The translations under genes were made by a program, and so were the position numbers. A stretch of 64,000 nucleotides of DNA from an uncultured candidate division Zixibacteria bacterium (GTDB lineage Bacteria > Zixibacteria > MSB-5A5 > RBG-16-43-9): contig OY970208.1 in the NCBI GenBank assembly GCA_963713865.1, positions 651,957 to 715,956 of the forward strand. The letters run 5' to 3'. The notes under the pieces are model-generated. The model saw only the letters and a list, made by a program, of their open reading frames with translations, was not told the origin of the DNA and did not search any database. Positions 3,470 to 60,054 of this stretch are shown here, in pieces (position 1 is the first letter of the stretch; each line of letters begins with the position of its first letter).

Positions 3470-3640
3470 CTTTCCCTTCCTTGATGGCCGATAAAAGCTT
3501 TACGGTGGCTACGCCCTTTGCTCCTCGTAGAGGAGGGATATAAGGGAGGGTGAAAGTATTTTTATTCCCCCTTCTCCCTAATCCTATCCCACGAGGGGAG
3601 AGGGAATAAACTTTCTTGGAACGGGCACCCTTGCCTGTCT
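3470..3640. repeat. composite GC-rich hairpin repeat, P family
   Basis: ttgatggccgataaaagctttacgg…cgtagaggagggatataagggagggtga…cccacgaggggagagggaat. Confidence 0.8.
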
Positions 3641-8365: not shown

Positions 8366-9883
8366 TTACTTAATAAGTAAAAGTTTTTTACAATCTTTAA
8401 ACTCAACTGTCCCGAAGGGATCCGTACGGACACTTAACTGATAGAAATAAATCCCACTTGACACCTCCTTCCCTGAATTGTCCTTCCCGTCCCAAACAAC
8501 CTGGTAAGTTCCTGACTGTTTTTCTTCATCTACCAGAGTTTTCACTTTTTGCCCTAGTAAATTATAAATCATCAGGGTAGTGGGGATGGGTTTGCCAAAC
8601 TCCAAACTCCCAACTCTAAACTGTATTATTGTGGATGAATTAAAGGGATTAGGGTAGTTTTGGCTCAATTCAAAGTTGTGAGGAAGAGTAGTTTGTTCTT
8701 CTTCAATCGCAGTATAAGGATTTTTATAAACATAAACCCTGCCTGGAGGATAGGATGGATTATTATACCACCAGCCAGGATCGCCTACTATGGCCTCATC
8801 TACTCCATCACCATTGATGTCAGCAACACTTACTTGACTACCATAATCACCCACTTCAGAATCATAATAATGCCAATCTTGTATTGTATCCAAAGGGTTA
8901 GAACCTAAATAGGTCCAAGCTTCCCCGCCAGCTAACGTTGGAACCCCCGAGAGTAGATCCTCATATTTATCTTTATTAAAATTGCCAATTGCCCAGGATT
9001 GACCTCTGATACAAAGAGGCGCGTCTATTAGAGAGTCTATTGTATTGCCTCCAAAATATGTTCCTTCAACTGTTATTATATCCTTATATCCATCTCCGTT
9101 AACATCTCCTAAAATTACAAATCCACCTTTTAATTTTACTCTTGGTATGGTGTCTAACTGCAGTCCCCCGAAATAAATATAGGTAGAGTCATCAGGATAA
9201 TGCTCGCTGGTGGAAACTGCCAAATCTCCATAACCATCCCCATTCATATCCCCTATGGCTAACCCGTCAAAACCAAAATAATTCGGAGGTCCCTGTAAAA
9301 CATAAGCAGGTGAGGTTGACATATCTGCCCCACCCAAATATACGTACACCCAGGTAGGACTTCCATGGATAGCAACATCATCATAACCATCCTTGTTAAT
9401 ATCACCCGTAGCAATATTATCTTCAAAATAAGGGGTTGCCAGAATTTTGTCTGGAACTGTATCAAAAGGAGTACCCCCATAATAAATCCAAACCGCTGAA
9501 AATGAAAATGGAGCTACAAGCAAATCTTCAATACTATCCCCATTCACATCACCAGCAGATATGTATCTAGATGAAAAAAGAAACATAACATCAGGAATAG
9601 TATCAAAATTCTTGGAGCCAAAATAGATAAAGGTTTTCCCTACTTGCCCTACTCCTAAATCTTCAAATCCATCCTTATTTATGTCCCCTATTCCAGCTAA
9701 AACATAACCAAAATAAAGAGTATCCCTTGCCCCTTGCATTACAGCTATCTGTTGCATACCAAACTGAGCTAAAGCGGAGTTACTAAAAAGTAAACTTAAT
9801 AACAAAACGATTAGAAAACTTTTCTTCTCTGACATTTCAAATCCTTGACTTATAATCTCAGTTCCTATCAATAAATTAAGCAA
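8366..9883 (-). CDS. FG-GAP (integrin-alpha-like) repeat protein with T9SS C-terminal sorting domain
   Basis: 505 aa; signal peptide; repeated DxNxDGxxD motifs (DINKDGFEDL, DVNGDSIEDL, DMNGDGYGDL); CTD NYPNPFNSSTII...GIYFYQL. Confidence 0.8.
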   Translation of the reverse strand: MLNLLIGTEIISQGFEMSEKKSFLIVLLLSLLFSNSALAQFGMQQIAVMQGARDTLYFGYVLAGIGDINKDGFEDLGVGQVGKTFIYFGSKNFDTIPDVMFLFSSRYISAGDVNGDSIEDLLVAPFSFSAVWIYYGGTPFDTVPDKILATPYFEDNIATGDINKDGYDDVAIHGSPTWVYVYLGGADMSTSPAYVLQGPPNYFGFDGLAIGDMNGDGYGDLAVSTSEHYPDDSTYIYFGGLQLDTIPRVKLKGGFVILGDVNGDGYKDIITVEGTYFGGNTIDSLIDAPLCIRGQSWAIGNFNKDKYEDLLSGVPTLAGGEAWTYLGSNPLDTIQDWHYYDSEVGDYGSQVSVADINGDGVDEAIVGDPGWWYNNPSYPPGRVYVYKNPYTAIEEEQTTLPHNFELSQNYPNPFNSSTIIQFRVGSLEFGKPIPTTLMIYNLLGQKVKTLVDEEKQSGTYQVVWDGKDNSGKEVSSGIYFYQLSVRTDPFGTVEFKDCKKLLLIK

Positions 9884-9903: not shown

Positions 9904-11394
9904 TTATTTGATTAACAAAAGTTTTTTACAATCTTTAAAACTGCCTGCCTTTAACTGATAGAAATATATTCCACTCGACACCTCCTTTCCTGAATTGTCC
10001 TTCCCATCCCAGATGATACTGTAACTACCTGGGGATTTATCTTCATCTACCAATGTCTTAACCAACTGCCCCTGAATATTATAAATCTTTAAGGTGATGT
10101 GGATGGGCCTCATAGCTCCAAGCTCCAAGCTACCAGCTTGGAAGGGTATGGTGGTGGAGAGGTTGAATGGATTGGGATAGTTTTGACCCAAAGCAAAAAT
10201 AGAGGGTAATTGCTGTGCTTCATCTTCAACCGCTGTATATGGATTCTTATAAATATAAACCCTGCCTGGTGGATAGGATGGGTTATTATACCACCAACCA
10301 GGGTCTCCTACAATTGCTTCATCCACTCCATCCCCATTAATATCTACCGCTCCTACCTGATCGCCGTATGCACCTACCTCATAATCACGATAGTGCCAAT
10401 CCTCTATTGTATCTAAGGGATTACCACCTAAATAAATTACTGCATCACCACCAACTATAGAGCCAGAGCCCCATAGATAATCCTCATATCCATCTTTATT
10501 AAAATTACCAATGACATTAGAGCGACCCCTTGTAAAAAGAGGTGAGTCCATTACTGAATCTATGGTAACTCCTCCAAAATAAGTTCCTTTATCTGTTATC
10601 AAATCCATATAACCATCTCCATTCATATCTCCTAATATAACATCCCCCCCCCTCAACTTCAATCCGGGAATTGTATCTAACTGCACTCCACCGAAATAAA
10701 TATAGGTAGAGTCATCAGGATAATGCTCGCTGGTGGAAACTGCCAAATCTCCATAACCATCCCCATTCATATCCCCTATGGCTAACCCGTCAAAACCAAA
10801 ATAATTCGGAGGTCCCTGTAAAACATAAGCAGGTGAGGTTGACATATCTGCCCCACCCAAATATACGTACACCCAGGTAGGACTTCCATGGATAGCAACA
10901 TCATCATAACCATCCTTGTTAATATCACCCGTAGCAATATTATCTTCAAAATAAGGGGTTGCCAGAATTTTGTCTGGAACTGTATCAAAAGGAGTACCCC
11001 CATAATAAATCCAAACCGCTGAAAATGAAAATGGAGCTACAAGCAAATCTTCAATACTATCCCCATTCACATCACCGGAAGATATATATACAGATGAAAA
11101 AGGAAACACTATATCCGGGATGGTATCAAAGTTTTTTGAACCAAAATATAGAAAGGTCCTACCCACTTGCCCAATACCTAAATCTTCGAATCCATCTTTA
11201 TTTATATCACCTATTCCAGCTAGAATATAACCAAAGTAAAGGTTGTCAGTCGCCCCCTGCATTGTAGCTATCAGTTGCATATCAAATTGGGCAAAAGCAG
11301 GGCTACAAAAAACTAAGCAAAAAAGCAAAAGAGTTAAAAATTCTTTTTTCTCTAACATTTCTACCATTTTCACTTTTTTAAAGATTGACCTCAT
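9904..11394 (-). CDS. FG-GAP repeat protein with T9SS C-terminal sorting domain (tandem paralog of 8366..9883)
   Basis: 496 aa; same architecture; central 385 bp identical to the neighbouring gene. Confidence 0.8.
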   Translation of the reverse strand: MRSIFKKVKMVEMLEKKEFLTLLLFCLVFCSPAFAQFDMQLIATMQGATDNLYFGYILAGIGDINKDGFEDLGIGQVGRTFLYFGSKNFDTIPDIVFPFSSVYISSGDVNGDSIEDLLVAPFSFSAVWIYYGGTPFDTVPDKILATPYFEDNIATGDINKDGYDDVAIHGSPTWVYVYLGGADMSTSPAYVLQGPPNYFGFDGLAIGDMNGDGYGDLAVSTSEHYPDDSTYIYFGGVQLDTIPGLKLRGGDVILGDMNGDGYMDLITDKGTYFGGVTIDSVMDSPLFTRGRSNVIGNFNKDGYEDYLWGSGSIVGGDAVIYLGGNPLDTIEDWHYRDYEVGAYGDQVGAVDINGDGVDEAIVGDPGWWYNNPSYPPGRVYIYKNPYTAVEDEAQQLPSIFALGQNYPNPFNLSTTIPFQAGSLELGAMRPIHITLKIYNIQGQLVKTLVDEDKSPGSYSIIWDGKDNSGKEVSSGIYFYQLKAGSFKDCKKLLLIK

Positions 11395-11422: not shown

Positions 11423-12115
11423 TCAAGAGATTTTTTCAATGAGGACAAAAATTCTTTTTAAACTAATTTCCGGTATTTCAAAAAATTTTACATCCTTAAT
11501 CTGCAATTTCAGGTTTTCAAATCCCTCCAGAAGCTCTATTATTTCAGTTTTATAGGAGCTCCCCTTATAAGCCACTAAAATCCCTCCTTGCTTTAGAAAA
11601 GGGTAAGAATTATTGATTGTGTCTTTCACTTTCCCGAAAGCTTTGGCAGTAACAAAATCAAAACTCTCTTTGAATCCCTGTAACTCCGGCAAATTTTCAA
11701 TCCTTTCTTGAAAAACGGTTATATCTTTCAAGCCCAAAAACTCGATCATCTTTTTCAGGAATAAAGTCTTTTTACGGATAGACTCAACCAGTGTAATATC
11801 TAAATCCTCTCTTAAGATTTTCATTGGAATTGCAGGAAATCCTGCGCCTGAGCCTAAATCCATGATTTTTGAGCTTTGCGGAATCTGGAGAGCTTTAAAG
11901 ATTAAAAGTGAATCAAAAAAATGTCTGTAGATATCCTCTGGCTTATCTTTTTTTCTGGAGATTAGGTTAATTTTTTTATTCCAGGAGGAAAGCTCATTCA
12001 GATACAGGTTAAATTTTTCTTGAGATTTTAAAGAAAGATTTATATCAAGGTAGGTTTTTAAAAGCTTTTTAAATTCTTCCATAGAAATATTATCAGTATG
12101 TTTCACGTGAAACAT
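11423..12115 (-). CDS. rsmG: 16S rRNA (guanine527-N7)-methyltransferase RsmG
   Basis: 230 aa; SAM motif DLGSGAGFPAIP; position downstream of mnmG. The true start is probably the internal Met at ~12082, because the first 6 codons are formed by an upstream palindrome. Confidence 0.85.
   Translation of the reverse strand: MFHVKHTDNISMEEFKKLLKTYLDINLSLKSQEKFNLYLNELSSWNKKINLISRKKDKPEDIYRHFFDSLLIFKALQIPQSSKIMDLGSGAGFPAIPMKILREDLDITLVESIRKKTLFLKKMIEFLGLKDITVFQERIENLPELQGFKESFDFVTAKAFGKVKDTINNSYPFLKQGGILVAYKGSSYKTEIIELLEGFENLKLQIKDVKFFEIPEISLKRIFVLIEKIS
12098..12115. promoter_or_regulatory. perfect palindrome aTGTTTCACGTGAAACAt upstream of rsmG (candidate operator)
   Basis: identical 16-bp core also at 14026-14041, upstream of mnmG. 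Confidence 0.45.
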
Positions 12116-12121
12116 TCCCCT

Positions 12122-14014: not shown

Positions 14015-14025
14015 GGTTACATAAA

Positions 14026-14041
14026 ATGTTTCACGTGAAAC
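14026..14041. promoter_or_regulatory. perfect palindrome TGTTTCACGTGAAAC 12 nt upstream of the mnmG start (candidate operator)
   Basis: same sequence as 12098-12115. Confidence 0.45.
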
Positions 14042-14425
14042 TTATTGTCAAGGGAATAATTACCTAACAAACAATTAAATAATCATACTTGTTGGGTAAC
14101 TTTGAATGAACAAGTCTTATAACTCATCCAGGCAGATGCAAAACCGCTTAGCGCCAGCGATACCCTGCTGGCAAATGAGGCGGCAATTGACAATCAGGTT
14201 TATCCTCTTGCTGGCGTCCGGCTGATGCGCTGGTTGGGCGCTTTGCAACTATCTATATGGTACTCTATTGATATGTTTATTTAGCGGACGCTAAATATTT
14301 CCCGGGTTCGTTATTTCCCATATCACTTCCACCCCCCCTTACTTTCAGAATATTCTCAAACTATATTTTTGTTTACTTTGGGCAGCTTCAATAACTCTTT
14401 ACGATTTATTCTCATCTTACTTTTT

Positions 14426-14800
14426 TTACCTGTCCTTAGTTCCGGCTGCAGGAATCTTCCTCAGCTTCATGATAAGGGATAAAATACCCAGTCCTATTAG
14501 CAGAGCGATGATGCCATAAACCCACCAGGGGATGTTCCGCCCAAAGAAGATCACATAGATAAAGGGCGCTACGGTAGCGCATAGAAAGATTGCGGTCCAG
14601 AGTATGACTTTTTTCCAGAGCTTTTTGGTGAGGGATTGAATGGTGCGAAATAATGAATAGTAGAATACCGGCGCACAAACCAGGTAAATAATCAGGAATA
14701 CAACCGGATTGACACCATAATCATCACGAGCCATCTGTAATAGTTCCTCTATCTTTGATATTACATAATCTAACATCCTCTGATATCTCCATTCATTCAA
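14426..14800 (-). CDS. hypothetical small membrane protein
   Basis: 124 aa; three predicted TM helices; inside the inserted region. Confidence 0.45.
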   Translation of the reverse strand: MNEWRYQRMLDYVISKIEELLQMARDDYGVNPVVFLIIYLVCAPVFYYSLFRTIQSLTKKLWKKVILWTAIFLCATVAPFIYVIFFGRNIPWWVYGIIALLIGLGILSLIMKLRKIPAAGTKDR

Positions 14801-14931
14801 TAATACAAGTGTTTAGCACCCAACTGACCCGCTTCACCTACCCGAAGGGTGGTCGGATGCAACCACTTGTTGGGCATCGGCAAGACATCACATCTATCCT
14901 GATTCGTCTCAAAGTCTAATCAGCCTAACTT

Positions 14932-15108
14932 CTCGACAATAAAAAGAAAGTCCACCCGATGCGCCCAGGGAAACCCGAGCGTAACGTTCGGGAATATTGA
15001 GATGACTTCACCCTCCAGGCCGTTCAGGAATTGCTCTAATTTGTTCTGGTCGCTTGTCATCCTGATATCGAACCGGTGCACCCTGTATTTCATCATCCTG
15101 ACTCCTTT
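14932..15108 (-). CDS. hypothetical 58-aa protein (Cse60-like small protein?) not in the ORF track
   Basis: ATG..TGA frame read manually from the sequence: MMKYRVHRFDIRMTSDQNKLEQFLNGLEGEVISIFPNV...; weak resemblance to the Cse60/DUF2758 small-protein family. Confidence 0.3.
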
Positions 15109-15144
15109 TTAAATAATTTACTATCTGTTTATACTACTACCAAG

Positions 15145-15675
15145 TTATGTACCTAACGAGATGCGCTGTATTGTTTTCACTGTATCATTTTCATAATTCG
15201 CCACGTCGAGTATCGCAATGCGTCCTGCTATCGCAAACTCCTCCTTGTTCCAACTTTCAGCCATTTCGATGCACTTTAGCGGGTCTTTTGAGTTCCCTAT
15301 TCCCATATGCGGAACAAAGTTGGCAAAGAGCGCACGATGTGGAAATAGCTTATCAGCGTATAGTTTGTCGTGGAGCTTTACGATTTTGCTGTACCCTTCA
15401 TCTGGCACCAGAAAAGTGTGATAATTATCGTTGAAGGAATCTTTATTGAGAACAGCACAGCGCAGGCAGAACTCAAATGGTCGAACTCCTTGCACTTGCT
15501 TCACGATTTCCGAGATAAAAGGTTTGGCTTCCCAACCTTTACGTATAGGAAATACAAGCGCAAAATGTGGCTCGACCACATGGTAATATAACTCGTCATT
15601 ACGTTTTCGGAATTCCTGTATCCGCTCATAATCGCTTTTTTTAATTTCTGGATACGCAAGCACTAATAGTGCCAT
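15145..15675 (-). CDS. hypothetical protein (weak 2H-phosphoesterase-like features)
   Basis: 176 aa; higher GC than its surroundings; no firm motif match. Confidence 0.45.
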   Translation of the reverse strand: MALLVLAYPEIKKSDYERIQEFRKRNDELYYHVVEPHFALVFPIRKGWEAKPFISEIVKQVQGVRPFEFCLRCAVLNKDSFNDNYHTFLVPDEGYSKIVKLHDKLYADKLFPHRALFANFVPHMGIGNSKDPLKCIEMAESWNKEEFAIAGRIAILDVANYENDTVKTIQRISLGT

Positions 15676-15984
15676 AGCTATTACTCCCCATTATGAAAGT
15701 TGATTTGAAAACTTTCTTGCATTTCGCTGCCTAACGCCATTGTTGGCCACTTTTCTTTTCACGGCTTTCTTGATAAATCGAGCCTCTTTTTCTCCCTCTT
15801 CATTCCGAATCTGGATCCTGTGGACCGGAAGGAGCCAGAGGTGCTCCTCCATCGTCTCAAACCAGTCTGGCATGTTTCGGTTCCTATATGGTCAACTATG
15901 CGGATGAACCGCTCCGGTGAGACCGTCCGCGCTTTATACGGGTCGGCCGAAACCGGTTGGTAGGTAAAAACCGTTAAATGGACA

Positions 15985-16323
15985 TCAATTTTCTGATTTG
16001 GAACGTCTCCCAAACCAATAACCCAATAAGGGACCAACTAAGCTCACCATTACTTCAGTATTGATGAAATTAAAAATGCGCAAGGAGACAATTCCGGCAA
16101 AAATTATTAAGGCAAATAAATATGCGGCCCATAAAGATTGAATACGATACGAATGATTCCTGGGTACGTTACTGGAATGAGCCTCTATAAAGGTCTTAAT
16201 AGAAGTTCGAATTTCCTTACTATTCAGAAGGTCAGCGATAGCTAACCAAGCTTCATCAGAAGGAGGAATTTCTTCATTAGGTTCTTTTTCAATTGGTTCT
16301 TGTTTCTCATCATCTTTGTTCAT
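15985..16323 (-). CDS. hypothetical protein with C-terminal TM helices; preceded by conserved leader module A1
   Basis: 112 aa; start overlapped by the upstream small ORF 16310..16411. Confidence 0.5.
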   Translation of the reverse strand: MNKDDEKQEPIEKEPNEEIPPSDEAWLAIADLLNSKEIRTSIKTFIEAHSSNVPRNHSYRIQSLWAAYLFALIIFAGIVSLRIFNFINTEVMVSLVGPLLGYWFGRRSKSEN

Positions 16324-16425
16324 ATCGAATCTCCTCCAAGTTTTTTTTATAGAGGCCTAACATGGGTTTATCTATACTAATTAAATTGCGATCGTTGGCT
16401 TTCTCAACCATATAAACCTCCTTTA
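16324..16425 (-). promoter_or_regulatory. conserved leader module A1 (SD plus 33-codon small ORF 16310..16411 overlapping the downstream start)
   Basis: aaggaggtttatATGgttgagaaagccaacgatcgcaatttaattagtatagataaacccatgtta…; homologous to the modules at 17873-17962 and 20295-20380. Confidence 0.7.
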
Positions 16426-16435
16426 TTTGTATCTT

Positions 16436-16500
16436 CTATTTCCCTATACAAGACTCCGAAAAAATCTTGTCCAGGATATCTTCAGTACAACTTTCCCTAA
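16436..16500 (-). other. duplicated fragment of the mnmE 3' end (last ~20 codons plus stop), ~5.3 kb from the intact mnmE
   Basis: The reverse complement encodes GKVVTEDILDKIFSESCIGK*, versus the intact MnmE C-terminus GKVVTEDILNKIFSEFCIGK* at 21745-21810. Nucleotide identity is roughly 88% over ~65 bp, by manual alignment. Confidence 0.75.
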
Positions 16501-16590
16501 ATCTGCAAGAGCCGAGCCGTTTTACGTTGTTATGTGATGAAACCGGTAGTTTTTCTTTATTCATAAAACCTATAAGCTCTAATGCAGAGG
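16500..16590. repeat. repeat module B1 (~93% identical to 17968-18060)
   Basis: aatctgcaagagccgagccgtttt.acg.tgttatgtgatgaaa.cggtagtttttct.cattcataaaacctataagctctaa in both copies. Confidence 0.8.
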
Positions 16591-16677
16591 TAAGCGGCGG
16601 GCGAGTTATAGTCTTCCAGAAAAATCAAACCATGTTCAACGCCCGTCCGCTTGACCGAATTGTTCGGCAATTTCCGT

Positions 16678-17121
16678 CTATCTCCATAGGTAGCCTGCCT
16701 CCTTTGCTTTGGCTACCAAGCTGGAATACGACTCAACCTCAATAAATGGCGCCCACTGACCATACTTCTTTTCTAATGAACCATCTTGGTGTTTAACGAT
16801 GTGCCAATAAGGTAACCAAACTGATGAAGAACCCTTATCAATTGACTCGACGATAACCAAGAATGGATAAAATTCGACCTTGCCACCATTTCCGTTCGAC
16901 CAACTTACGATCTGATCAGGGAGAAAGGCTGTCAAAACCCTACAGTGATGCTGACCAGCACCCAAACCAAAATTGAAAGTAAGTTCAATGCTCATGGGCA
17001 ACGCGCACGATTCGCATGCGTGCCCTTGGCCATTGGCATGATCATGGAGAGCAACAAATAGATTTGCTATCCAGGTTTTCTTATGACACGCCCCACAGAC
17101 ATAATATCTCTGCGTTGCCAT
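16678..17121 (-). CDS. hypothetical protein with N-terminal CxxC...CxxC zinc-ribbon-like motif
   Basis: 147 aa; CGAC...CESC cysteine pairs. Confidence 0.5.
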   Translation of the reverse strand: MATQRYYVCGACHKKTWIANLFVALHDHANGQGHACESCALPMSIELTFNFGLGAGQHHCRVLTAFLPDQIVSWSNGNGGKVEFYPFLVIVESIDKGSSSVWLPYWHIVKHQDGSLEKKYGQWAPFIEVESYSSLVAKAKEAGYLWR

Positions 17122-17224
17122 CTTGGATTCCTACTTGTGTGTGGCCCAACGCGGTGTTAATCTGCGAGGTGAACTTTTAGCCCAATTTGAAGTCCTCCAG
17201 TACAGAGTTAGCTTGAACACGTTG

Positions 17225-17872
17225 TTAGCCATTTTTTATTCTGTTAAGCAATTCTTTACAATATGAGGTTTTATATGATATTAAACCCAATTTTCCCCTT
17301 AATTTGTTTGCAGAAATATTTCGTTGTTTTGATAATATTTCTTTTGCCTGAATTTCATAATAACTCTCTTTTAATAATCCAAAATGCCATAAAAGCCTAA
17401 TAAGGGATAAAACATCATCCTTCGGGTCTATTTTTGGATCTTTGCCGATATATAGGATTAAGCCGTCAAGTACTTTAGATTCCAATAACTCGCCTTCAAT
17501 AACAGTTACATCTTTTGGAATTTTATTTTTAATTCGATCAGCAATATTAATTCCAAAAATTGTCTGAATAACTTTTTTGTCTTTCCAACGTTCTTTTGCC
17601 AATTTTCTTGATTCTTTAATTTGTTTTAAAATTCTATCTAGCGATTTATTATGAAATGTACTGTTAATATTGGATTTGCATTCACAAATATTAACCTTTT
17701 TCGGATCTTCCGGATCAATTGCGATTAAATCAAAATCAGTAGTAGCTGTAGATGGACTATATTTTGTTATTTTCTTTCGGTCATATCTAATGGGCAAATT
17801 TTCAATTACAAAAGCACCATTCAATCTTTCCATCCATAATCTACAAATTCGCTCAAACGGATGATAGGCCAT
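17225..17872 (-). CDS. hypothetical protein with PD-(D/E)xK nuclease-like motif
   Basis: 215 aa; DFDLIAID ... ICECK fits the hhhD-x(n)-ExK pattern; very AT-rich and Lys-rich; preceded by leader module A2. Confidence 0.55.
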   Translation of the reverse strand: MAYHPFERICRLWMERLNGAFVIENLPIRYDRKKITKYSPSTATTDFDLIAIDPEDPKKVNICECKSNINSTFHNKSLDRILKQIKESRKLAKERWKDKKVIQTIFGINIADRIKNKIPKDVTVIEGELLESKVLDGLILYIGKDPKIDPKDDVLSLIRLLWHFGLLKESYYEIQAKEILSKQRNISANKLRGKLGLISYKTSYCKELLNRIKNG

Positions 17873-17962
17873 TTTTAATATCCTCTTTTCATAGCCAACA
17901 TAGGTTTATCTGTTCTAATTAAATTGCGACCACTGTCTTTCTTGACCTTATAAGCCTCCCAC
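17873..17962 (-). promoter_or_regulatory. conserved leader module A2 (same element; the small-ORF start codon is mutated ATG->AAG)
   Basis: gggaggcttatAAGgtcaagaaagacagtggtcgcaatttaattagaacagataaacctatgttggct…. Confidence 0.65.
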
Positions 17963-17967
17963 AAACT

Positions 17968-18060
17968 TACTCACAATCTGCAAGAGCCGAGCCGTTTATA
18001 CGCTGTTATGTGATGAAATCGGTAGTTTTTCTTCATTCATAAAACCTATAAGCTCTAACG
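17968..18060. repeat. repeat module B2
   Basis: see B1; lies immediately upstream (in gene orientation) of leader module A2. Confidence 0.8.
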
Positions 18061-18184
18061 GGATTTTCACCGATCAAACCGCAAAGAGATACTTCCCTGA
18101 AAATTGTGATGGACCGAACTCTCAAAATTAGAAAAAGTAGTGCGCGGTTCGATCAGCGTGCAAAATTGGGTTATGGCTATTAAC

Positions 18185-19000
18185 CTACATATCTTTTTTC
18201 TCTATATTATTCCCATGATAATGAGTTATTGATAGAACTTGACGCAATACACTTAATGGTTCATTAGGAATAGGCATTGGTATTAGAATTTTATCAATAG
18301 GATACTGAAAAGGTGATAATATTTTACTAACCATAGTGAGAAGACCAATGATATCTGGTTCTACAGGGTGAAAGGGTATAGCTAATAATTTCCAATGATA
18401 CGTATCACGTTTTGCTCGAATGAACGCTGATCCATATGCATTAACAAAGGGTAATAATACAGTCATTAATTGTTTCTCAACAATTTTCTTACTTTTTATA
18501 GCTCCTTGAAGTGAATCAAATAGATCTATAAAGTTATCTACGGGAATCGATAATATGCCCAGTCTCTTACCCCGAAATTCATCGATATGAGAACGCCAAG
18601 GTATAAGTTGCTCTTGATACTGGGAACCTAGCTGCAAAGCTTCAATCATTGGATATATCATTTGTGCAGAATTAAATTTTTGGTTAAGAAATATAAATTC
18701 ATCAAATGATATTCCAGATAAGGAAAACATAACTGAACAATACGGTGATTCCGCAAGTCTATAAGCATGTCCAGCTATTTCAAAAGATTCTTGTGATCCT
18801 GTTAGGTCAGAGAGCAGTAGAGAGTGAGCAGCAGAACGCCTGAAATATGTGGCAGCAATAAATGCTAAAGAAATGCGATTTTGAATGGTTTCTTCTTTCT
18901 TGGCATGTGTAAAATAGGTATGTCCAATCTCACTATAAACATTACCAAGACGCATAACACGTTCCGAGTCAAGCTCAGCTAGAAATTCATATTTAATCAT
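18185..19000 (-). CDS. hypothetical protein (partner of 19020..19664)
   Basis: 271 aa; 19-nt spacing from the upstream gene suggests a two-gene operon. Confidence 0.5.
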   Translation of the reverse strand: MIKYEFLAELDSERVMRLGNVYSEIGHTYFTHAKKEETIQNRISLAFIAATYFRRSAAHSLLLSDLTGSQESFEIAGHAYRLAESPYCSVMFSLSGISFDEFIFLNQKFNSAQMIYPMIEALQLGSQYQEQLIPWRSHIDEFRGKRLGILSIPVDNFIDLFDSLQGAIKSKKIVEKQLMTVLLPFVNAYGSAFIRAKRDTYHWKLLAIPFHPVEPDIIGLLTMVSKILSPFQYPIDKILIPMPIPNEPLSVLRQVLSITHYHGNNIEKKDM

Positions 19001-19019
19001 TGATGTTTCCTCGTTGAAA

Positions 19020-19664
19020 TCATATAATCACATCACGGATATTAGATATTTCTTCTGGAGAAATGTACTTACGAGTGTTAAAAACTTCACTCGTTGGTCT
19101 AGGTATTTGCCTTGATCTGAACGAAGTAAGAGTAGAATTAATTTCATAATAACAGTATTTCTCGATTTGTGTTGGTGGTATATTTATCTTAGCTGTGACT
19201 TCACCTTCAGGTTGAAAAGGGCTGAAACCTGTGTATATATTTAACTCTCTAACTTCTTCAGAAAAAGGTCGGTGTGCTATGCTTTGTTTACCAAGAACGA
19301 ATAAATAACAATGAAACAAATATCCATCATGCGACCACCCGTCTGTAGCGAATTCAAGTGCAATGAGCCAAGCAGGATGCCGAATATTAATTCCTGCTGC
19401 TGGATTTCTCTCAATAGAACCTGCGGTTGTTGAAATGAATGGAGTATGTTTGTAGAAAGGTTCTCCACCTTCCTGTGGGTCGGGGTCCGTAAATCTGTTC
19501 TGATGCCAAAATAAATTACGATCTGTAAGACGTACATATACTTCTACTTCGGGCATATTATGTACTTTATTCCACCAGTTACATAGAATACCCACATTCA
19601 TTATATTATCAGCTTCATTTTTCGAAATGCCTCCAATCCCTCTTATTACTTTTTGAATAATCAT
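19020..19664 (-). CDS. hypothetical protein; possible R-S-E-type ADP-ribosyltransferase-like motifs (weak)
   Basis: 214 aa; ordered motifs YVRLTD (Arg), FISTTAG (S-T-T), QPEGEV (Q/E-x-E). Confidence 0.4.
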   Translation of the reverse strand: MIIQKVIRGIGGISKNEADNIMNVGILCNWWNKVHNMPEVEVYVRLTDRNLFWHQNRFTDPDPQEGGEPFYKHTPFISTTAGSIERNPAAGINIRHPAWLIALEFATDGWSHDGYLFHCYLFVLGKQSIAHRPFSEEVRELNIYTGFSPFQPEGEVTAKINIPPTQIEKYCYYEINSTLTSFRSRQIPRPTSEVFNTRKYISPEEISNIRDVII

Positions 19665-19757
19665 TTTTAATTTTCCCTTAATTATGCCATAACGTTACAC
19701 TCCACCGGCTCGTAGCCCACCGCGGGCTTCGCGTGCGGTGGGAGCGATAGTTGGACA

Positions 19758-20294
19758 TTAAAATAGTTCTTTCAAACTGTCTGCAAAGGCCTTGAGTTTC
19801 AACATTGTTTCAGGATTGTCTCTTACCTCTCGTGGGAGAAAGTCTTCTTTATGATCCCGCAGGTATTCCCACACGAAATCGCGGATATGAAACGGAAGGC
19901 TGAGGATATTCCCTGATCCTTGGGTGATAATTCCCTTGTTCAAGAGGGAATTAGCCGTTTGGTTGATTGCGGTTGCACTGAGTGTCTGGACATTGTGGAA
20001 CAAGCAGTAGGCGATCCATTTGTATTCCGACAGATCAAGAGTTCGCAGGCGTTTGATTATGACAGCCTTTTGCCTTGCTTTTCCTCGGATTTCAGAAAAC
20101 CAATTGGAGACACATATGGTGGCTGAGAAGATTAGTCCGAGCCAACAAAATCCGAGATAATCGAGCTTGATCTTTTCCAGTCCGAGTGACTTCGATGTGT
20201 CGGTCGGCAAAAGGATTACGAAAAGACAGACGAAGAATACTCCCCAAGCGTACTTCGCTACTGCCTCAAGTATTGTTGATATAGCTTCAATCAT
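19758..20294 (-). CDS. hypothetical 2-TM membrane protein with soluble C-terminal domain
   Basis: 178 aa; two N-terminal hydrophobic helices; start codon overlapped by the conserved upstream small ORF (module A3). Confidence 0.55.
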   Translation of the reverse strand: MIEAISTILEAVAKYAWGVFFVCLFVILLPTDTSKSLGLEKIKLDYLGFCWLGLIFSATICVSNWFSEIRGKARQKAVIIKRLRTLDLSEYKWIAYCLFHNVQTLSATAINQTANSLLNKGIITQGSGNILSLPFHIRDFVWEYLRDHKEDFLPREVRDNPETMLKLKAFADSLKELF

Positions 20295-20380
20295 ATCTTA
20301 CGTCCAACATAGTTTTATCTACACTAATTAAATTGCTTTCACTATCTTTCTTGACCATATAAACCCCCTCCAAACCTCCC
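20287..20380 (-). promoter_or_regulatory. conserved leader module A3 (SD GGAGGGGG plus 23-aa small ORF 20287..20358, MVKKDSESNLISVDKTMLDVRYD, whose stop overlaps the downstream ATG as ATGA)
   Basis: manual base-by-base translation verified against the sequence. Confidence 0.7.
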
Positions 20381-20618
20381 CACATTCTTAATGACAGACT
20401 GTACTTCTCGCCATAGGTCACGCTTGTGAACAAGAAGAAATTCGAGGCCATTTAGATGGGAATGTATTTTTCAAAAATATCAATCTCGTCATAATCAGGA
20501 TTAAAGTCCCTCATTAAAGTTTTTTTCCTATTATCTGCTAAATGTCGAGTAAAAAATATTTCAGGCTCCTGAATAAAACCTCTTTTGACAAAGGTTAAAA
20601 TCCATATTTTTTTCATTC

Positions 20619-21524
20619 TTACACTCCTTTCATTCTCTTAAACCAGCTATACACATCTCTATATTCCATAAAGTTGCAAATATCGGTCAATCCACTCGTC
20701 CTAAAGGTGGGACGACCGATCTGCCTTAGGAACATAGACCGCCTTGTATCATTTGAGACAATGTTGAATTTTAGTTTCAAATTAGGTTCAATAAGATGCA
20801 TATCATTAAATCTGAGTAACCCAGAATATATCGGCGTTGAATATTCAACTTCGAAAATTGCGGTTAGCTCACTAGAACCTCTCTGAATCCATATAACATC
20901 AACTTCCCTGATAATATTGTCAACCTTTTCATATCGCACTGGCAAATCACTTCTACAAGCGTATTCTTCTGCCAAGCTCCAATCCAATTTATTTCTATCA
21001 TTTAATGGTATCCAGATGTCATGACCTTTTATTGTCCCTATTGAGCCGATCAAAGTTTGAATTTGAGAATGACCGAGGTCCGGCATAACCACAATCTTAT
21101 TTTTATCGATCAGATTATCTAAAATATGCCATCCATAAAAACCCTCTATATTGAACCGACCAGCATTGGCAATATAAAGCTCGGTTTCCTCACCAGGATA
21201 AATCTGAACCTTGTATTGACCATCAGAAGCTGGCGTCAGAGAGTTGAATATTTCTTCAAAATCTGTAAAAGGTACAAAAACAGGCTCTGTTTGAGTATCC
21301 CATAAAAAGCAAATAACAGAATTAACTCCTTCCAATTGTTTTATATCATCTCGCCGTAATCCAAAAAATGTCTTGTCTCTATCGTGAACTTTTGAATATC
21401 TTATATATATTCGTGCTAAGCCATCGCCTATCTCAAATAAAGAGAGACTGTTCGGTAATCGTTTTGGTTTACCATATTTACTTCTTAATTGTTCTAGAAA
21501 AGCTTTCTTAAATGGATTTGCCAT
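20619..21524 (-). CDS. hypothetical protein (possible divergent PD-(D/E)xK/restriction-endonuclease-like)
   Basis: 301 aa; VDVIWI...IFEVEYS segment loosely nuclease-like; first cargo gene downstream of mnmE. Confidence 0.45.
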   Translation of the reverse strand: MANPFKKAFLEQLRSKYGKPKRLPNSLSLFEIGDGLARIYIRYSKVHDRDKTFFGLRRDDIKQLEGVNSVICFLWDTQTEPVFVPFTDFEEIFNSLTPASDGQYKVQIYPGEETELYIANAGRFNIEGFYGWHILDNLIDKNKIVVMPDLGHSQIQTLIGSIGTIKGHDIWIPLNDRNKLDWSLAEEYACRSDLPVRYEKVDNIIREVDVIWIQRGSSELTAIFEVEYSTPIYSGLLRFNDMHLIEPNLKLKFNIVSNDTRRSMFLRQIGRPTFRTSGLTDICNFMEYRDVYSWFKRMKGV

Positions 21525-21744
21525 AGGATTGTTATAACGTAATTTCAGTTTATCATCGCACCTGCCCCACGGTGATTGTGACGATTAGTTGCAATGACTC
21601 ATCCGGTATGGTCTTCAGTAGTTCTATACAATCACCGGGATAAACAACAATTTGCTCTGACAGTGCAAATTTCTGAACTATTTTTCTCTTGTCGAACATA
21701 ATACTATGATAATAAAATGTAGGTTTAGAGTCAACGGATTCATT

Positions 21745-23181
21745 TTATTTCCCTATACAAAACTCCGAAAAAATCTTATTCAGTATATCTTCAGTTACAA
21801 CCTTCCCTACAATCTCACCGATTGAATCTAAAGCAACTCTCAAATCTAAAGCCACAAATTCAAAGCTCATATTTTTCAAAAGGCTATCCTTAGCCAGAGA
21901 TAGAGATTGAACTGCTTTTGCTAATGCTTCTTTATGTCTTAAATTACTAATTAATCCGCCTAAGGCGGACTGGTCAAGTCCTTTTTTGGAAAAGAAGACC
22001 TCAGAGGCAATTTTATCTTTTAATTCCTCTATACCCCAGCCTTTCAAAGCTGAGATATTATGAATTTTTTTAGATATTTCTTTTTGCTCTAATCCTTCAG
22101 AGAGCTTCTTTTCTATTTCTTTGACTTTTTCATCTGAGACTAAATCCACCTTATTAATCGCAATTATATAACTAAAATCAGCTAATTCTTTTTCTAAGTC
22201 TTTATCCTCTTTTGTTATACCGGTCTCCGCATCAACAACAAAAACTATGAAGTCAGCTTTACTTATCTCAATCTTTGTCTTTTTAATCCCTTCGATCTCG
22301 ATCTTATCTTTAGAGACCCTGAACCCCGCTGTATCGGTCAACCTCACCGGCAAACCTTTGAAATTAGTATATTCGCTGATCACATCCCTGGTAGTCCCTG
22401 GAATTGGGGTAACAATAGCCCGCTCCTCTTTTAAGAATGCGTTTAAAAGGGAAGATTTGCCAACATTGGTCTTTCCCACAATCACAACCCTTAATCCTTC
22501 TCTCAAAATCTTCCCCTCTTCGTAGGTCTCGATCAAACTTTTTATCTGGGATTCAATCTTCTCTATCTTTTCTAAAACAAAAGACCTGTCCAGATCCTCA
22601 ATCTCTTCCTCTGGAAAATCTATCCTTGCTTCCAATTCAGCTAAAATAGAAATCAACTCTTCCTGGATGAGATTTAGTTTTTCAGATAATTCACCCTGAA
22701 GATGTTTCAGGCTGTGTTTCAGGCTCAAATCTGTCTTCGCCTTTATGATCTCAGCCACTGCTTCAGCCTGGGCTAAATCGATCCGTCCGTTTAAAAAAGC
22801 CCTGAGTGTAAATTCCCCAGGATTGGCAAGTCTTGCCCCACACTTTATTATCTCCTCAAGCACCCTGCAAAGAACAAGAGGGCTTCCATGACAGCTTATC
22901 TCGACCAGGTCTTCTTTGGTATAGCTTTTAGGTGCCCTGAAGACTGTAAGATAAACTTCGTCTATCACCTGCCTGGAATCCGGAGAAATTAGCTTTCCAT
23001 AATTTGCTTTATGGCTTTCTGCTTTGCTAAGTGATATTTCCCCTTTGAAGATTTTATCAGCAATAAAAATAGCTTTTTTGCCGCTAATTCTTACTATACC
23101 GATTCCGCTTTCTCCAAAGGGAGTAGAAATAGCTGTTATGGTATCTTCTGTGTCAGAGAGATACCCCAAAGATTTCTCCAT
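21745..23181 (-). CDS. mnmE: tRNA modification GTPase MnmE (TrmE)
   Basis: 478 aa; G-domain motifs GKTNVGKSSL, DTAG; C-terminal CIGK typical of MnmE. Confidence 0.95.
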   Translation of the reverse strand: MEKSLGYLSDTEDTITAISTPFGESGIGIVRISGKKAIFIADKIFKGEISLSKAESHKANYGKLISPDSRQVIDEVYLTVFRAPKSYTKEDLVEISCHGSPLVLCRVLEEIIKCGARLANPGEFTLRAFLNGRIDLAQAEAVAEIIKAKTDLSLKHSLKHLQGELSEKLNLIQEELISILAELEARIDFPEEEIEDLDRSFVLEKIEKIESQIKSLIETYEEGKILREGLRVVIVGKTNVGKSSLLNAFLKEERAIVTPIPGTTRDVISEYTNFKGLPVRLTDTAGFRVSKDKIEIEGIKKTKIEISKADFIVFVVDAETGITKEDKDLEKELADFSYIIAINKVDLVSDEKVKEIEKKLSEGLEQKEISKKIHNISALKGWGIEELKDKIASEVFFSKKGLDQSALGGLISNLRHKEALAKAVQSLSLAKDSLLKNMSFEFVALDLRVALDSIGEIVGKVVTEDILNKIFSEFCIGK

Positions 23182-29324: not shown

Positions 29325-29395
29325 ATTTTTGATTATTATCTATTTTTGATATGGCGACCCAAAAAGAAACTTTTGAAAAACCAGAATTATCAAAG

Positions 29396-29515
29396 TGTCA
29401 TTCTGAGTCCCCGTAGGGGGCGAAGAATCTCCATATGAATCAAAGAGATTCTTCGGTCGCTACCCTCCCTCAGAATGACAGGGTGGATTTTCTCAACACA
29501 CCCTAAAGGATCGCG
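29396..29515. repeat. nested-palindrome repeat, H family (gtcattctgag...gacgaagaatc...gattcttcg...ctcagaatgac) with conserved flank
   Basis: near-identical to copies at 199-330 and 59927-60054. Confidence 0.85.
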
Positions 29516-36749: not shown

Positions 36750-36975
36750 CGTTGTCACAGGAGTAACAACGCTACCATCATTTCCTCCTGTAGCGTCCTC
36801 ACTCCTGTCCTCCGGATCCGCTCCTAAGGATGAAGACGACTGTATTTCTCCTCCTTTGATGGCCGATAAAAGCTTTACGGCTCGTAGAGGAGGGGATAAA
36901 GGGGAGGGTGATTCCAAAATACCTTTATATTTACCCCTCTCCTTAATCCTCTTCCACAAGGGAAGAGGAAAATAT
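36750..36975. repeat. composite GC-rich hairpin repeat, P family (…gataaaagctttacgg…cgtagaggagggg…ggggagggtga…ccctctcc…ggaagagg)
   Basis: shares modules with 1393-1612, 3470-3640 and 59150-59345; ORF 36726..36959 is an artefact of this repeat. Confidence 0.8.
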
Positions 36976-47986: not shown

Positions 47987-49432
47987 TGTTATAGCAAGAT
48001 TAAAATGTCCTAATTTCTACAAAGTTAAAATGTCCTGTTTTCATGTTTTAGTTAATAGTAGCTTTTGTTCTTTTTGTTCATAAGGTCTATATTGTGAATT
48101 AACCTTAAACTTCCGCCAGGGATGATCCACTGGAGGTATATAAGCCGTTTTGAGTTTTAATATGGGTAGTTTTGGAGTTTCTTTTTCTCTCTTAGGCCTG
48201 ATGATAATCTCTTTAAACTTCAAGATGGTATCTTTATAGGTAATTAGCATAGAGCCATCTATCATATCTTCTACTATCACATTGTTAGTTCTTACATTAT
48301 CCTTTATCTGATAGAGCCTGTTATTATGCGCTACCGTGAAGTCGTTCCTTAAAGCCCTTTCGGTCTTAAAGCATAGTATTCGATCCAGGTTAAGAGCTAT
48401 GGGAACAGGTCTATGAAGATCAAGCTCTTCTGCCGCCCTAAAGCTGAATCGCTTATTATATATGGGCAGGTAGTATCTTAAGAGTCGATTGGCTTCTTCT
48501 ATGGTCTTAATACCTCTTAGCCTCATCTCCTTTATTAGGCGATCCTGGAAAGTCCTGAATTGTCTCTCTATCCTCCCCTTAGCCTGAGGAGAATGGGCAT
48601 AGATAATCTTAACTCCCAATTCCTTAAAAGCTCTGGCAACCTCACTCAACGGCTCTATTCCCTTAAGCTGGTCTTCTATAGAAGGCTTCTTAGTTGATTT
48701 ATATGTGGTATGCTTGTCTAAATATATGCTCAGCGGAATACCATATTTTTTGATATAACGTTTAAAACTGTCCATAGCTGGAATGGTGCCTTCATAAGGA
48801 TAAAATCTTGCAAAGACATTACCGGTAGCGTCATCCACATAACCCATAAGAACACATTCCGGACCCCTGCTCTCCAGCCAATCATGATGAGAACCGTCCA
48901 GCTGGATCATCTCGCCAAAATAACGCCTCCTCTGACGCCACTGACGATGAGCCTTTCTCTTTCGACCCCGGTACTCTATCCCTTTCTCCTTGAGCCAGTT
49001 CCTTAAGGTCTCTCGACTTAAACCTATCTTGTCTATCTCTAAAAGCTTCTCTGTCGCTAAGGTCGGACCAAATCCTGCATATCTCTCCTCATAAAGCTCA
49101 AGAACCCTTGTCTTTATCATATCCGGTGTCATATTATGCGATGGTTTTCCTCGAGATCTGTGGACTATACCTCGGTCGCCTTCTTCTATCACCCGCTTTA
49201 TTATTCTTCTGACCTGCCTATCGCTTAAACCTAATATCCCAGCTGCCTCTACTTGAGTTAAACCCTTGTCAATTGCCTGGTGAATCACATTTATCCTCTT
49301 TAGCTCCTCCTGGCTCATCTTTATTATGTCCTTCCCTGCCATAATATCCTCCTTTGGAAAAAGATACTATGGCAATCTCTAAATAGGACATTTCTGCTTT
49401 GCTAAAACAGGACATTATTATATTGCGATTAC
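47987..49432 (-). mobile_element. insertion sequence (IS481/ISNCY-like, rve-family DDE transposase) with imperfect terminal inverted repeats containing duplicated AATGTCCT motifs, flanked by a 17-bp direct repeat aggatttatttttagta (47970-47986 and 49433-49449)
   Basis: transposase ORF 48041..49342; ends aaaatgtcctaattt/aaaatgtcctgtttt at left and aaacaggacatt/taggacattt at right; direct repeat read from the sequence. Confidence 0.7.
48041..49342 (-). CDS. DDE transposase (integrase core domain, N-terminal HTH)
   Basis: 433 aa; HTH LTQVEAAGILGLSDRQVRR; rve-like core with D..D..E spacing. Confidence 0.8.
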   Translation of the reverse strand: MAGKDIIKMSQEELKRINVIHQAIDKGLTQVEAAGILGLSDRQVRRIIKRVIEEGDRGIVHRSRGKPSHNMTPDMIKTRVLELYEERYAGFGPTLATEKLLEIDKIGLSRETLRNWLKEKGIEYRGRKRKAHRQWRQRRRYFGEMIQLDGSHHDWLESRGPECVLMGYVDDATGNVFARFYPYEGTIPAMDSFKRYIKKYGIPLSIYLDKHTTYKSTKKPSIEDQLKGIEPLSEVARAFKELGVKIIYAHSPQAKGRIERQFRTFQDRLIKEMRLRGIKTIEEANRLLRYYLPIYNKRFSFRAAEELDLHRPVPIALNLDRILCFKTERALRNDFTVAHNNRLYQIKDNVRTNNVIVEDMIDGSMLITYKDTILKFKEIIIRPKREKETPKLPILKLKTAYIPPVDHPWRKFKVNSQYRPYEQKEQKLLLTKT

Positions 49433-51375: not shown

Positions 51376-51466
51376 TCGTCGTTGCGAGGAGTCCCGCCTT
51401 TGGCGTGACGACGAAGCAATCCGTACCTCATTGCGTGAACAGATTGCTTCGCAATGACAACTCAAA
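51376..51466. repeat. nested-palindrome repeat, G family
   Basis: tcgtcgttgcgaggagtcccgcctttggcgtgacgacgaagcaatc…gattgcttcgcaatgac. Confidence 0.8.
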
Positions 51467-58117: not shown

Positions 58118-58218
58118 TTTTTGTCATTGCGAGGAGTCCACAGGACGACGAAGCAATCCGTCCCTCACAGAGTAAACAGATTGCTTCGTCTCGCCTTTGT
58201 GGCGGACTCGCAATGACA
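58105..58218. repeat. nested-palindrome repeat, G family (gtcattgcgag...gacgaagcaatc...gattgcttcg...ctcgcaatgac)
   Basis: copies at 50195-50239, 51376-51466, 58105-58218, 35652-35688; covaries with the H family. Confidence 0.85.
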
Positions 58219-59149: not shown

Positions 59150-59345
59150 AGGTAGCGTACCCACTCTCGTCCTGCGGATCCGTTAATAGGATGAGGACGA
59201 GCATATTTCCCCTCCCTTGATGGGAGGGGATGAAGGGGAGGGTGAGATTATTTTTATTCCCCTCTCCCTAACCCTCTCCCACAAGGGGAGAGGGAATCAT
59301 ATCTCCGCTACCAGAGCAAGCCCTTGTTGGGCACGAGTGGCATCG
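59150..59345. repeat. composite GC-rich hairpin repeat, P family (ccctctccc...gggagaggg)
   Basis: ccctctccctaaccctctcccacaaggggagagggaat; related to the copies at 1393-1612, 3470-3640 and 36750-36975. Confidence 0.8.
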
Positions 59346-59926: not shown

Positions 59927-60054
59927 TGTCATTGCGAGTCCGCCAAAGGCGGGTCATTCTGAGTCCGCAGGACGAAGAATCTTCATTTGAATCAACGAGA
60001 TTCTTCGGTCGTCTCGCTAAAGGCGGACTCCCTCAGAATGACAGGTTTTATTTT
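59927..60054. repeat. nested-palindrome repeat, H family, preceded by a partial G-family arm
   Basis: gtcattgcgagtccgccaaaggcgg + gtcattctgagtccgcaggacgaagaatc…gattcttcggtcgtc…ctcagaatgac. Confidence 0.85.

Follow-up and report, generated by a model that had tools for sequence, protein, structure and literature searches.

Integrative mobilizable elements of the SGI1 and MGIVchHai6 type reside in Gammaproteobacteria at the 3' end of trmE, the gene referred to here as mnmE (PMC6531882, PMC8409611, PMC7449626), and this gene end is a recognised hotspot because its terminal codons are highly conserved. We analyzed a locus at the same gene in an uncultured candidate division Zixibacteria bacterium, namely the 7,730-bp interval between mnmE and mnmG (21744-14015, minus strand) within a 64-kb stretch of contig OY970208.1 (the window, to which coordinates refer unless a relative is named). 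As far as sequence comparison can tell, this interval most likely includes a slot directly after mnmE at which cassettes of defence and toxin genes pile up and are swapped among related lineages; the interval itself is free of integrase genes in all 12 genomes compared.

As in SGI1-type elements, accessory DNA here sits at the conserved 3' end of mnmE, which is kept intact, with a direct repeat at the far side. However, those elements are tens of kb long and encode their own tyrosine integrase as well as excision and mobilisation functions, none of which is present here, where cassettes of 0.7-2.3 kb are stacked in tandem in a different phylum. They also use an 18-nt attachment site (att) and depend on IncA/C plasmids, whereas the repeats in the present lineage measure 27-245 nt: the duplicated segments include the terminal 18 nt of mnmE but extend further, to 65-71 or 245 nt (~27 nt being detectable in the relative L081). 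Thus, despite the mnmE end and the direct repeat, an assignment to the SGI1 family fails, as neither integrase nor mobilisation genes are found.

Another parallel is offered by the "insertion with long target duplication" of restriction-modification (R-M) systems, described by Furuta, Abe and Kobayashi in 2010 and in earlier H. pylori work cited there, in which R-M units devoid of an integrase are inserted with target duplications >30 bp, mostly in naturally competent species (PMC2853133). Common to both are small R-M or other units without a mobility gene, direct repeats >30 bp that are single-copy in uninserted genomes, the overlap of some repeats with a gene 3' end, and allelic substitution by other R-M types at the locus. 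In the present lineage the repeats are 65 nt long in the window and 245 nt long in the relative L001, and the 5.3-kb insert (<20 kb) is free of transposase and integrase genes. Of R and M genes, the window holds only the carcass of a methylase and an endonuclease together with an orphan gene resembling a restriction endonuclease (REase), the methylase-endonuclease pair being intact in L081 and L174. The difference is that the described insertions occupy isolated, scattered sites, while here unrelated cargo is stacked at one slot with a reusable junction (D2D5-O-D1, defined below).

Defence hotspots flanked by core genes are a familiar concept. In the "minimal mobile elements" of Neisseria, exchange has been attributed to homologous recombination in the flanks (PMC3787668, PMC1797815). 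There, as here, the same core-flanked interval holds different cassettes in different strains, mobility genes are missing and R-M systems are frequent; in our material this takes the form of ten gene sets in 12 genomes, mosaic flanks and a cassette more similar than its flanks. Unlike the present locus, minimal mobile elements normally have one occupant per site, without partial duplication of a flanking gene or internal junction repeats; competence is documented for Neisseria, whereas the Zixibacteria-like host is uncultivated.

Integron cassette arrays include the integrase-less clusters known as CALIN arrays, for which intI is not required, and their attC sites are imperfect palindromes (RYYYAAC ... 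GTTRRRY) that fold as hairpins. Co-oriented, small, mostly promoterless cassettes past a fixed site, an array-specific repeat between them, and the oldest members lying farthest from the point of entry are features shared with such arrays; on the other hand, intI and attC hairpins are absent, the ends are direct rather than inverted, and the junction is partly a copy of the target-gene 3' end. Membership among integrons consequently fails (no attC, no intI). By analogy, the locus seems to join the workings of a core-gene-flanked hotspot (or minimal mobile element) to those of long target duplication, on an SGI1-type target and in an integron-like layout. Our literature search on mnmE-adjacent defence hotspots returned only papers on SGI1/MGI-type and Vibrio mobile genetic elements and, as far as we found, there is no earlier description of a stacked array with a reusable junction that holds the target-gene end.

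Cassettes and junction units between mnmE and mnmG

Along the gene strand, mnmE is followed by a methylase fragment with genes for 301 and 54 amino acids (aa), junction 3, genes for 178, 214 and 271 aa, junction 2, genes for 215 and 147 aa, junction 1 with an mnmE tail, a gene for 112 aa, a set of shared genes and mnmG, all interval genes being oriented as mnmE in the manner of co-oriented small cassettes. The features of the variable part are as follows (ORF, open reading frame; TM, transmembrane segment):

23181-21745, minus strand: intact mnmE (478 aa), left flank, with mosaic divergence among relatives
20389-21744, minus strand: cassette 1, carcass of a BglII-type R-M system, 92% identical to L081 and 89% to L174
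21734-21706, minus strand: promoter-like site of cassette 1 (promoter scan)
21699-21577, minus strand: cassette 1, methylase codons 1-41, a truncated DNA methylase directly after mnmE
21598-21536, minus strand: cassette 1, methylase codons ~235-255
21524-20619, minus strand: cassette 1, inserted 301-aa REase-like gene (PADLOC REase_II, 3e-7)
20616-20452, minus strand: cassette 1, inserted 54-aa ORF
20464-20381, minus strand: cassette 1, BglII endonuclease codons 7-34
20304-20388, minus strand: junction copy 3, O-deleted remnant plus D1; D2D5 lost
19758-20294, minus strand: cassette 2 gene 1, 178-aa two-TM SieB-like (superinfection exclusion B) protein (Pfam PF14163, 2.2e-11, 44 bits vs. a cut-off of 26)
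19020-19664, minus strand: cassette 2 gene 2, 214-aa protein with a predicted R-S-E ADP-ribosyltransferase (ART) fold (R45, S78-T79-T80, E153-G-E155)
18185-19000, minus strand: cassette 2 gene 3, 271-aa all-alpha helical-repeat partner of the 214-aa protein
17895-18059, minus strand: junction copy 2, D2D5 (18059-17964) plus GATTGT plus 12 nt plus D1 (17958-17895); O cleanly deleted
17225-17872, minus strand: cassette 3 gene 1, 215-aa PD-(D/E)xK-like protein (D...E-C-K motif by eye; 29% GC)
16678-17121, minus strand: cassette 3 gene 2, 147-aa four-Cys Zn-ribbon protein (45% GC)
16357-16591, minus strand: junction copy 1, full length, D2D5 (16591-16501) fused to the mnmE copy O' (~16503-16436), then D1 (16435-16357)
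15985-16323, minus strand: 112-aa membrane protein, found in this genome alone among the loci compared

The DNA between intact mnmE and its displaced end thus reads as three stacked conflict-gene cassettes placed head to tail, the 112-aa gene being resident cargo behind the original mnmE end. A first-pass annotation had proposed a single element of ~5.3 kb; what we observe instead is three cassettes parted by junction repeats, the first of which is what decay has left of an R-M cassette preserved in full (methylase and endonuclease) in L081 and L174, with the O-deleted junction retained.

The displaced end itself, a ~65-bp copy of the mnmE 3' end in the same orientation, had been recognised in that annotation and is confirmed as more than a chance match. 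The last ~69-70 nt of mnmE (21814-21745, hereafter O) recur downstream at about 16503-16436 on the mnmE strand (extent read by eye), with 58 of 64 nt matching (90.6%; BLAST 16499-16437, E=6.5e-15), and a repeat search paired 16434-16486 with 21743-21795 at 91% over 53 nt (block D3). Its interpretation as a displaced mnmE 3' end also stands. The translation quoted for it (GKVVTEDIL...) does not: the copy carries a 1-nt deletion (gttgtactgaag vs. gttgtaactgaag) that shifts the frame, the in-frame reading ends ...RESCTEDILDKIFSESCIGK followed by the stop, and the "GKVV..." translation therefore mixes two frames.

The displaced copy is embedded in a larger repeated unit. Its components are D1 (~65-85 nt), present three times in the window (16357-16441, 17895-17979 and 20304-20388 by repeat search), and D2+D5 (~95 nt), present twice (16501-16591, or 16489-16591 at its widest, and 17964-18059), with no further copy of D1 or D2 found elsewhere in the window. 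Together they form a portable junction unit, D2D5 followed by O (sometimes deleted) and then D1, that separates the cassettes. In junction copy 1 the stop TAG of O' lies at 16438-16436, and the point at which D5 is fused to O (...TTGCAG followed directly by ATTGT...) is fixed in every copy aligned. The same unit with the same fusion point occurs in L081, L170, L174 and L175; it is full length in window copy 1 and L170 and decayed in one copy of L081 (L081_b), while in L175 an OMP gene takes the place of D1 behind D2D5-O. One shared deletion of O is seen in window copy 2, L081_a and L174_j, and junctions of both types part unrelated cargo in different genomes. As D1 stands directly 3' of the mnmE stop in six relatives (L002, L082, L083, L169, L170 and L175), it represents the native flank. 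D2 alone also precedes the start of a methyltransferase gene (L084) and a degenerate, in-frame duplicate of the mnmG 5' end (L001).

Several other identities of the junction sequence were considered, and most of them were rejected. D5 may be a remnant of the mnmG 5' coding region, but it matches that region at only ~50-62% over 32 nt, and D2 also precedes a methyltransferase gene (L084) as well as O. A conserved leader peptide in D1 is contradicted by loss of the start codon in L082, L083 and window copy 2 and by frame and length varying among copies. A structured RNA or riboswitch is not indicated either: Rfam returned nothing at E<=1, the fold is not significant (z-score -0.28 as RNA, +0.54 as DNA), and consensus pairing is nil for D1 and weak, without covariation, for D2D5. 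An integron-type attC site was dismissed in view of the lack of a hairpin, the direct ends and the absence of intI.

That the cargo contains no recombinase, as initially noted, was borne out: none of the interval proteins gave a hit to recombinase families (Pfam, PADLOC, PHROGs and NCBIfam), no integrase was noticed among the translated window ORFs of 170 aa or more, and a search by regular-expression motifs gave false hits in MnmE itself only. Likewise, no cargo protein matched families related to mobilisation or transfer (oriT, relaxase-like, parts of type IV secretion systems). The sole mobility gene noticed in the 64-kb window encodes a 433-aa insertion sequence (IS)-type transposase (48041-49342) with HTH domains and a weak rve_3 integrase-core match, 26 kb from the interval.

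Cargo turnover, transfer and mosaic flanks

Scans based on MnmE marked the organism as Zixibacteria-like and, with look-ups of MnmE homologues, supplied 11 further loci from its lineage (L001, L002, L081, L082, L083, L084, L168/L173, L169, L170, L174 and L175), whose MnmE identity is 77-95%. The comparison thus covers about a dozen metagenomic contigs. Cargo follows mnmE in 12 of 12 genomes and falls into ten unrelated gene sets, in which R-M, nuclease or toxin genes predominate, e.g.:

L081 and L174: BglII-type R-M system
L083: BsuBI/PstI R-M system
L168/L173: PLD nuclease and Eco57I-type methylase
L084: NgoFVII/DrmC-like PLD nuclease
L001: Fic, then DUF6236-like and DUF6680
L170: three small genes, then a DACNG/DACNH protein
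L082: TPR protein
L175: 472-aa protein without a family
L002: DUF5343

In every member of the lineage, mnmE and mnmG are 4.1-7.7 kb apart, and no empty site or empty scaffold was encountered among 178 loci, so that the check for empty sites in relatives came back negative. Genes for an M1 peptidase and a TrkA-domain protein occupy the mnmE-mnmG gap of a Zixibacteria outgroup at 62% identity, and other phyla have mnmE and mnmG either 10-300 nt apart or unlinked; their supposed normal adjacency is thus not ancestral in this phylum. The duplicated mnmE end measures 65-71 nt in the window, L170 and L175, 245 nt in L001 and a detectable ~27 nt in L081, and it is single-copy in L082, L083, L168 and L169. 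The Fic insertion of L001 comes without D2D5. A recombinase was found in the mnmE-mnmG interval of none of the 12 loci.

The mnmG-proximal part of the interval behaves differently. The block 14015-15890 (minus strand) matches L001 at 88-94% by BLASTN, and its proteins are 84-96% identical in relatives (L001, L081, L083 and L168; 80-96% when compared protein by protein in L001, L081 and L083), similar to core genes, which places this block outside any insertion and sets the end of the variable region at ~15891. The initial view of the entire 7.7 kb as one insertion is accordingly untenable for this block, since its presence in relatives at core-like divergence had been named in advance as a refutation. 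With regard to the closest relatives, the claim of foreign DNA between the displaced copy and intact mnmE is upheld, and 15891-16436 has to be added to it. Just upstream of the real mnmG, degenerate duplicates of the mnmG 5' end occur in L001 (18500-18648, fused in frame to the D2 block) and L175 (4244-4317).

Comparison of L081 and L174 provides the clearest case of movement. Their mnmE genes are 74-79% identical (52% at third positions), while the R-M cassette behind them is 90.0% (methylase) and 91.3% (endonuclease) identical (79-81% at third positions), and the identity drops back to 74% at D2D5; the tract of high identity begins inside mnmE, in a final stretch of ~45 nt that agrees at 98% between the two hosts. 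An R-M cassette at 90-91% identity against host mnmE genes at 74-79% demonstrates horizontal transfer into the same slot. More generally, the similarity of junction blocks is uncoupled from host relatedness: D2D5 of window copy 2 and L175 agree at 98.8% against 78.6% for mnmE, whereas D1 of L082 and L002 agree at 71% against 96.7% for mnmE.

The flanking genes themselves present as recombination mosaics. Between L001 and L081, mnmE is 100% identical over ~720 nt and 90-93% identical over the last 300 nt, with ~10% divergence on either side of the identical block, which is direct evidence that homologous exchange took place very recently inside an essential gene of this population. In mnmG, blocks of 100% and 77% identity adjoin one another. 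Furthermore, the intact mnmE end of L001 is a different allele from the displaced 245-nt copy in the same locus.

Probable homologous exchange and rival explanations

We favour, with a probability of roughly 60%, an interpretation of this locus as a lineage-specific cassette slot (hotspot) directly 3' of mnmE, whose cassettes would be exchanged by homologous recombination or by insertion with long target duplication. Cassettes would enter, leave and be replaced through recombination in conserved scaffold blocks, a role that would fall to D1, D2D5, the almost unchanging ~45-70 nt at the end of mnmE and the genes conserved further downstream. The likeliest route is host homologous recombination on DNA from related lineages. 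A double crossover would swap the cargo; a single crossover or a long target duplication would add a cassette and duplicate O-D1, leaving a stacked array and a displaced mnmE end; and later deletions would erode older cassettes and junctions. It is the combination of transfer into the slot, uncoupled junctions, mosaic flanks, the allele mismatch in L001 and variable duplications that favours homologous recombination; the enzymology (RecA-type or dedicated recombinase) and the entry route of the DNA are what we infer from these patterns. The "classic site-specific integration" of the first-pass annotation fits less well than homology-driven exchange with the variable duplications, the duplicates of the mnmG 5' end, the mosaic flanks and the lack of an integrase in 12 loci.

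A number of points weigh against this interpretation. Homologous recombination alone leaves unexplained the first entry of each novel cargo between D1 and D2. In 8-9 independent cassettes the boundary between cargo and junction lies at an identical nucleotide (...ATGTT(R)(G) towards D1; (G/A)TT followed by AGAGC... towards D2). A short direct motif resembling GTTAG and an inverted repeat of 8 nt (AAACCTAT / ATAGGTTT), noticed post hoc, enclose each cargo, and every copy has D2D5 fused to O at one fixed point. The trmE/mnmE 3' end is also a well-known target of tyrosine integrases (PMC6531882, PMC8409611). Finally, the recombinase survey covers 64 kb of a ~2.7-Mb genome, and the sample amounts to about a dozen metagenomic contigs.

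Fixed cargo edges, bracketing motifs, the fixed D5-O fusion and the known trmE integrases make a trans-acting recombinase a serious rival, which we consider possible though distinctly less probable than homologous exchange. In this scenario the enzyme, a tyrosine recombinase or one of another type whose gene would lie at a different genomic position or on a helper element, would insert circular cassettes serially at an att site in the mnmE tail or junction, as in the accretion of cis-mobilizable elements (CIMEs) and integrative and conjugative elements (ICEs) or in SGI1-type targeting of trmE. The direct orientation of the displaced mnmE 3' end, the identical D5-O fusion and sharp cargo edges in many independent cassettes, the motif and inverted repeat at those edges, and the arrival of the R-M cassette at exactly the same position in hosts ~25% diverged are all as expected from such an enzyme, and known integrases target the terminal 18 nt of trmE (PMC6531882). 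Nevertheless, no recombinase is present in 12 of 12 intervals, and none was noticed in the 64-kb window except for the distant IS transposase. Duplication lengths vary (27, 65-71 and 245 nt), the Fic insertion of L001 lacks D2D5, and mnmG 5' duplicates occur; the cargo-side sequences are without the complementary half-sites expected of hybrid att sites, the junction blocks were not found in IMG/VR viral contigs, and the flanks are mosaics of homologous recombination.

More speculatively, the junction unit could be the recombination site of an undescribed integron-like platform anchored on the mnmE 3' end, in which an unlinked recombinase would act on a split core AAACCTAT-GTTAGAGCTT-ATAGGTTT (D1 tail plus D2 head) and insert or excise promoter-poor defence cassettes. 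We regard this as unlikely; if it were true, transcription from an essential operon near the origin would run through the array, making it a "cassette library" in an uncultivated phylum.

An old, stable and vertically inherited expansion, with the 65-nt match as a relic of local duplication that plays no role in gene flow, is very improbable. It would account for the mnmG-proximal 1.9 kb, common to relatives at core-like divergence, and for the overall GC of the interval, which equals the window average; but the cargo beside mnmE differs at 83-95% MnmE identity, the 12 genomes presenting ten gene sets unrelated to one another, the similarity of the R-M cassette far exceeds that of its hosts, and the junction units have their own phylogeny, so that this explanation is contradicted for 15891-21744. 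An assembly artefact, i.e., a chimeric or mis-joined contig formed via 65-230-nt repeats, is the least credible of all: although the data come from metagenomes and contain short repeats inside a 5-kb span, the mnmE-cargo-junction-cargo order recurs in independent assemblies from different projects (L001, L081, L170, L174 and L175), the cassettes between the repeats are unique, and the window proteins are found on a 2.72-Mb contig.

The locus illustrates how defence and toxin genes can be collected, stacked and traded at one fixed chromosomal position whose interval carries no gene of an integrase, a transposase or a phage; the phylum concerned has been seen in metagenomes alone. Across hosts 25% different in mnmE, the hardly varying final codons of this essential gene appear to be a universal homology or att anchor, and unrelated integrases of Gammaproteobacteria use the same conservation of the mnmE end. 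The junction unit, in turn, provides a sequence handle for finding further arrays and their cargo.

Cargo families and neighbouring features

The window cargo is predicted to consist mostly of defence or toxin genes (R-M remnants, SieB-like, ART-fold toxin plus partner, nuclease-like), in agreement with its initial classification as conflict-type. Enrichment in defence and conflict genes is evident from the REase_II-like gene, the methylase remnant, SieB and the ART-fold protein, and in the relatives from the R-M systems, PLD nucleases, Fic and DACNG/DACNH, several cargo proteins being without a known family. The early statement that everything in the interval is hypothetical was nearly right, the exceptions being three family matches (SieB, PF14163; a 2H phosphoesterase, PF13563; REase_II). 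No cargo protein matched PHROGs, and a PDB sequence search with the 301-, 215-, 214- and 147-aa proteins gave no match; for the 215- and 147-aa proteins this extends to Pfam, PADLOC, PHROGs, NCBIfam and PDB. The 215-aa protein is a near-orphan, with 4 representatives in 1.84 billion proteins.

As a by-product, the analysis points to a widespread, unannotated family in which an ART-fold protein has an obligate helical partner. The 214-aa family has 253 cluster representatives in many phyla, with hosts among Verrucomicrobia, Gammaproteobacteria, Cyanobacteria, Acidobacteria and Bacteroidota, and R45, S78-T-T80 and E153-G-E155 are conserved. In every locus examined (also L161-L163, L176 and L177), the 271-aa partner lies directly downstream of the 214-aa gene after a gap of 19-20 nt. 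No Pfam or PADLOC model covers the module (19664-18185), and neither the ART family nor the junction blocks were found in IMG/VR viral contigs. The pair is a candidate toxin with its immunity protein or regulator, or a candidate abortive-infection system.

Compositional heterogeneity, another of the initial observations, was corroborated, with GC ranging from 29.3% to 45.3% among genes. The average is 39.5% for the window and 38.9% for the interval overall; locally, 14500-16250 reaches ~43-45%, the 215-aa gene 29.3% and the 147-aa gene 45.3%. A promoter and terminator scan of the interval revealed no enrichment, and no such site at the junctions.

The conserved surroundings comprise the following features:

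25449-25096, minus strand: rnpA, first in the gene order, with yidD next
24853-23198, minus strand: yidC, between yidD and mnmE
15873-15691, minus strand: 60-aa ORF (MPDWFETMEE...), N-terminal remnant of a 250-aa S-adenosylmethionine-dependent methyltransferase
15675-15145, minus strand: 2H phosphoesterase, 176 aa (Pfam PF13563, 4e-10)
15096-14920, minus strand: 58-aa ORF
14800-14426, minus strand: 124-aa membrane protein
14025-14047 (upstream of mnmG) and 12094-12116 (rsmG start, codons MFHVKH): palindrome TGTTTCACGTGAAACA
14014-12122, minus strand: mnmG (630 aa), right-hand conserved flank, also a recombination mosaic
12115-11423, minus strand: rsmG, beyond mnmG

The placement of parAB beyond rsmG and of dnaA-dnaN-gyrBA on the opposite side of the locus identifies it as the origin region. 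Within the shared block, the 250-aa methyltransferase is intact in L082, L083 and L168 and shows the same decay in the window and L001 (15132-15323). Both copies of the TGTTTCACGTGAAACA palindrome are conserved in L001, L082 and L083, and it may be a common operator or promoter element for mnmG and rsmG.

Further afield, tandem paralogous FG-GAP-repeat proteins with C-terminal tails of the type IX secretion system (T9SS) type (8366-9883 and 9904-11394) share long blocks that are 76-80% identical in DNA and partly identical in protein, which suggests recent duplication or gene conversion. Families of intergenic hairpin repeats resembling repetitive extragenic palindromic (REP) sequences are dispersed in the window and are unrelated to the junction units:

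3540-3607, 36905-36972 and 59230-59297: REP-like repeat family
224-308 and 59970-60054: REP-like repeat family
167-214 and 29363-29410: REP-like repeat family
51407-51451 and 58144-58188: REP-like repeat family

Beside ileS, a 443-aa protein (55739-57070) combines internal repeats of ~70 aa with a C-terminal HNH-like Cys/His motif recognised by eye.

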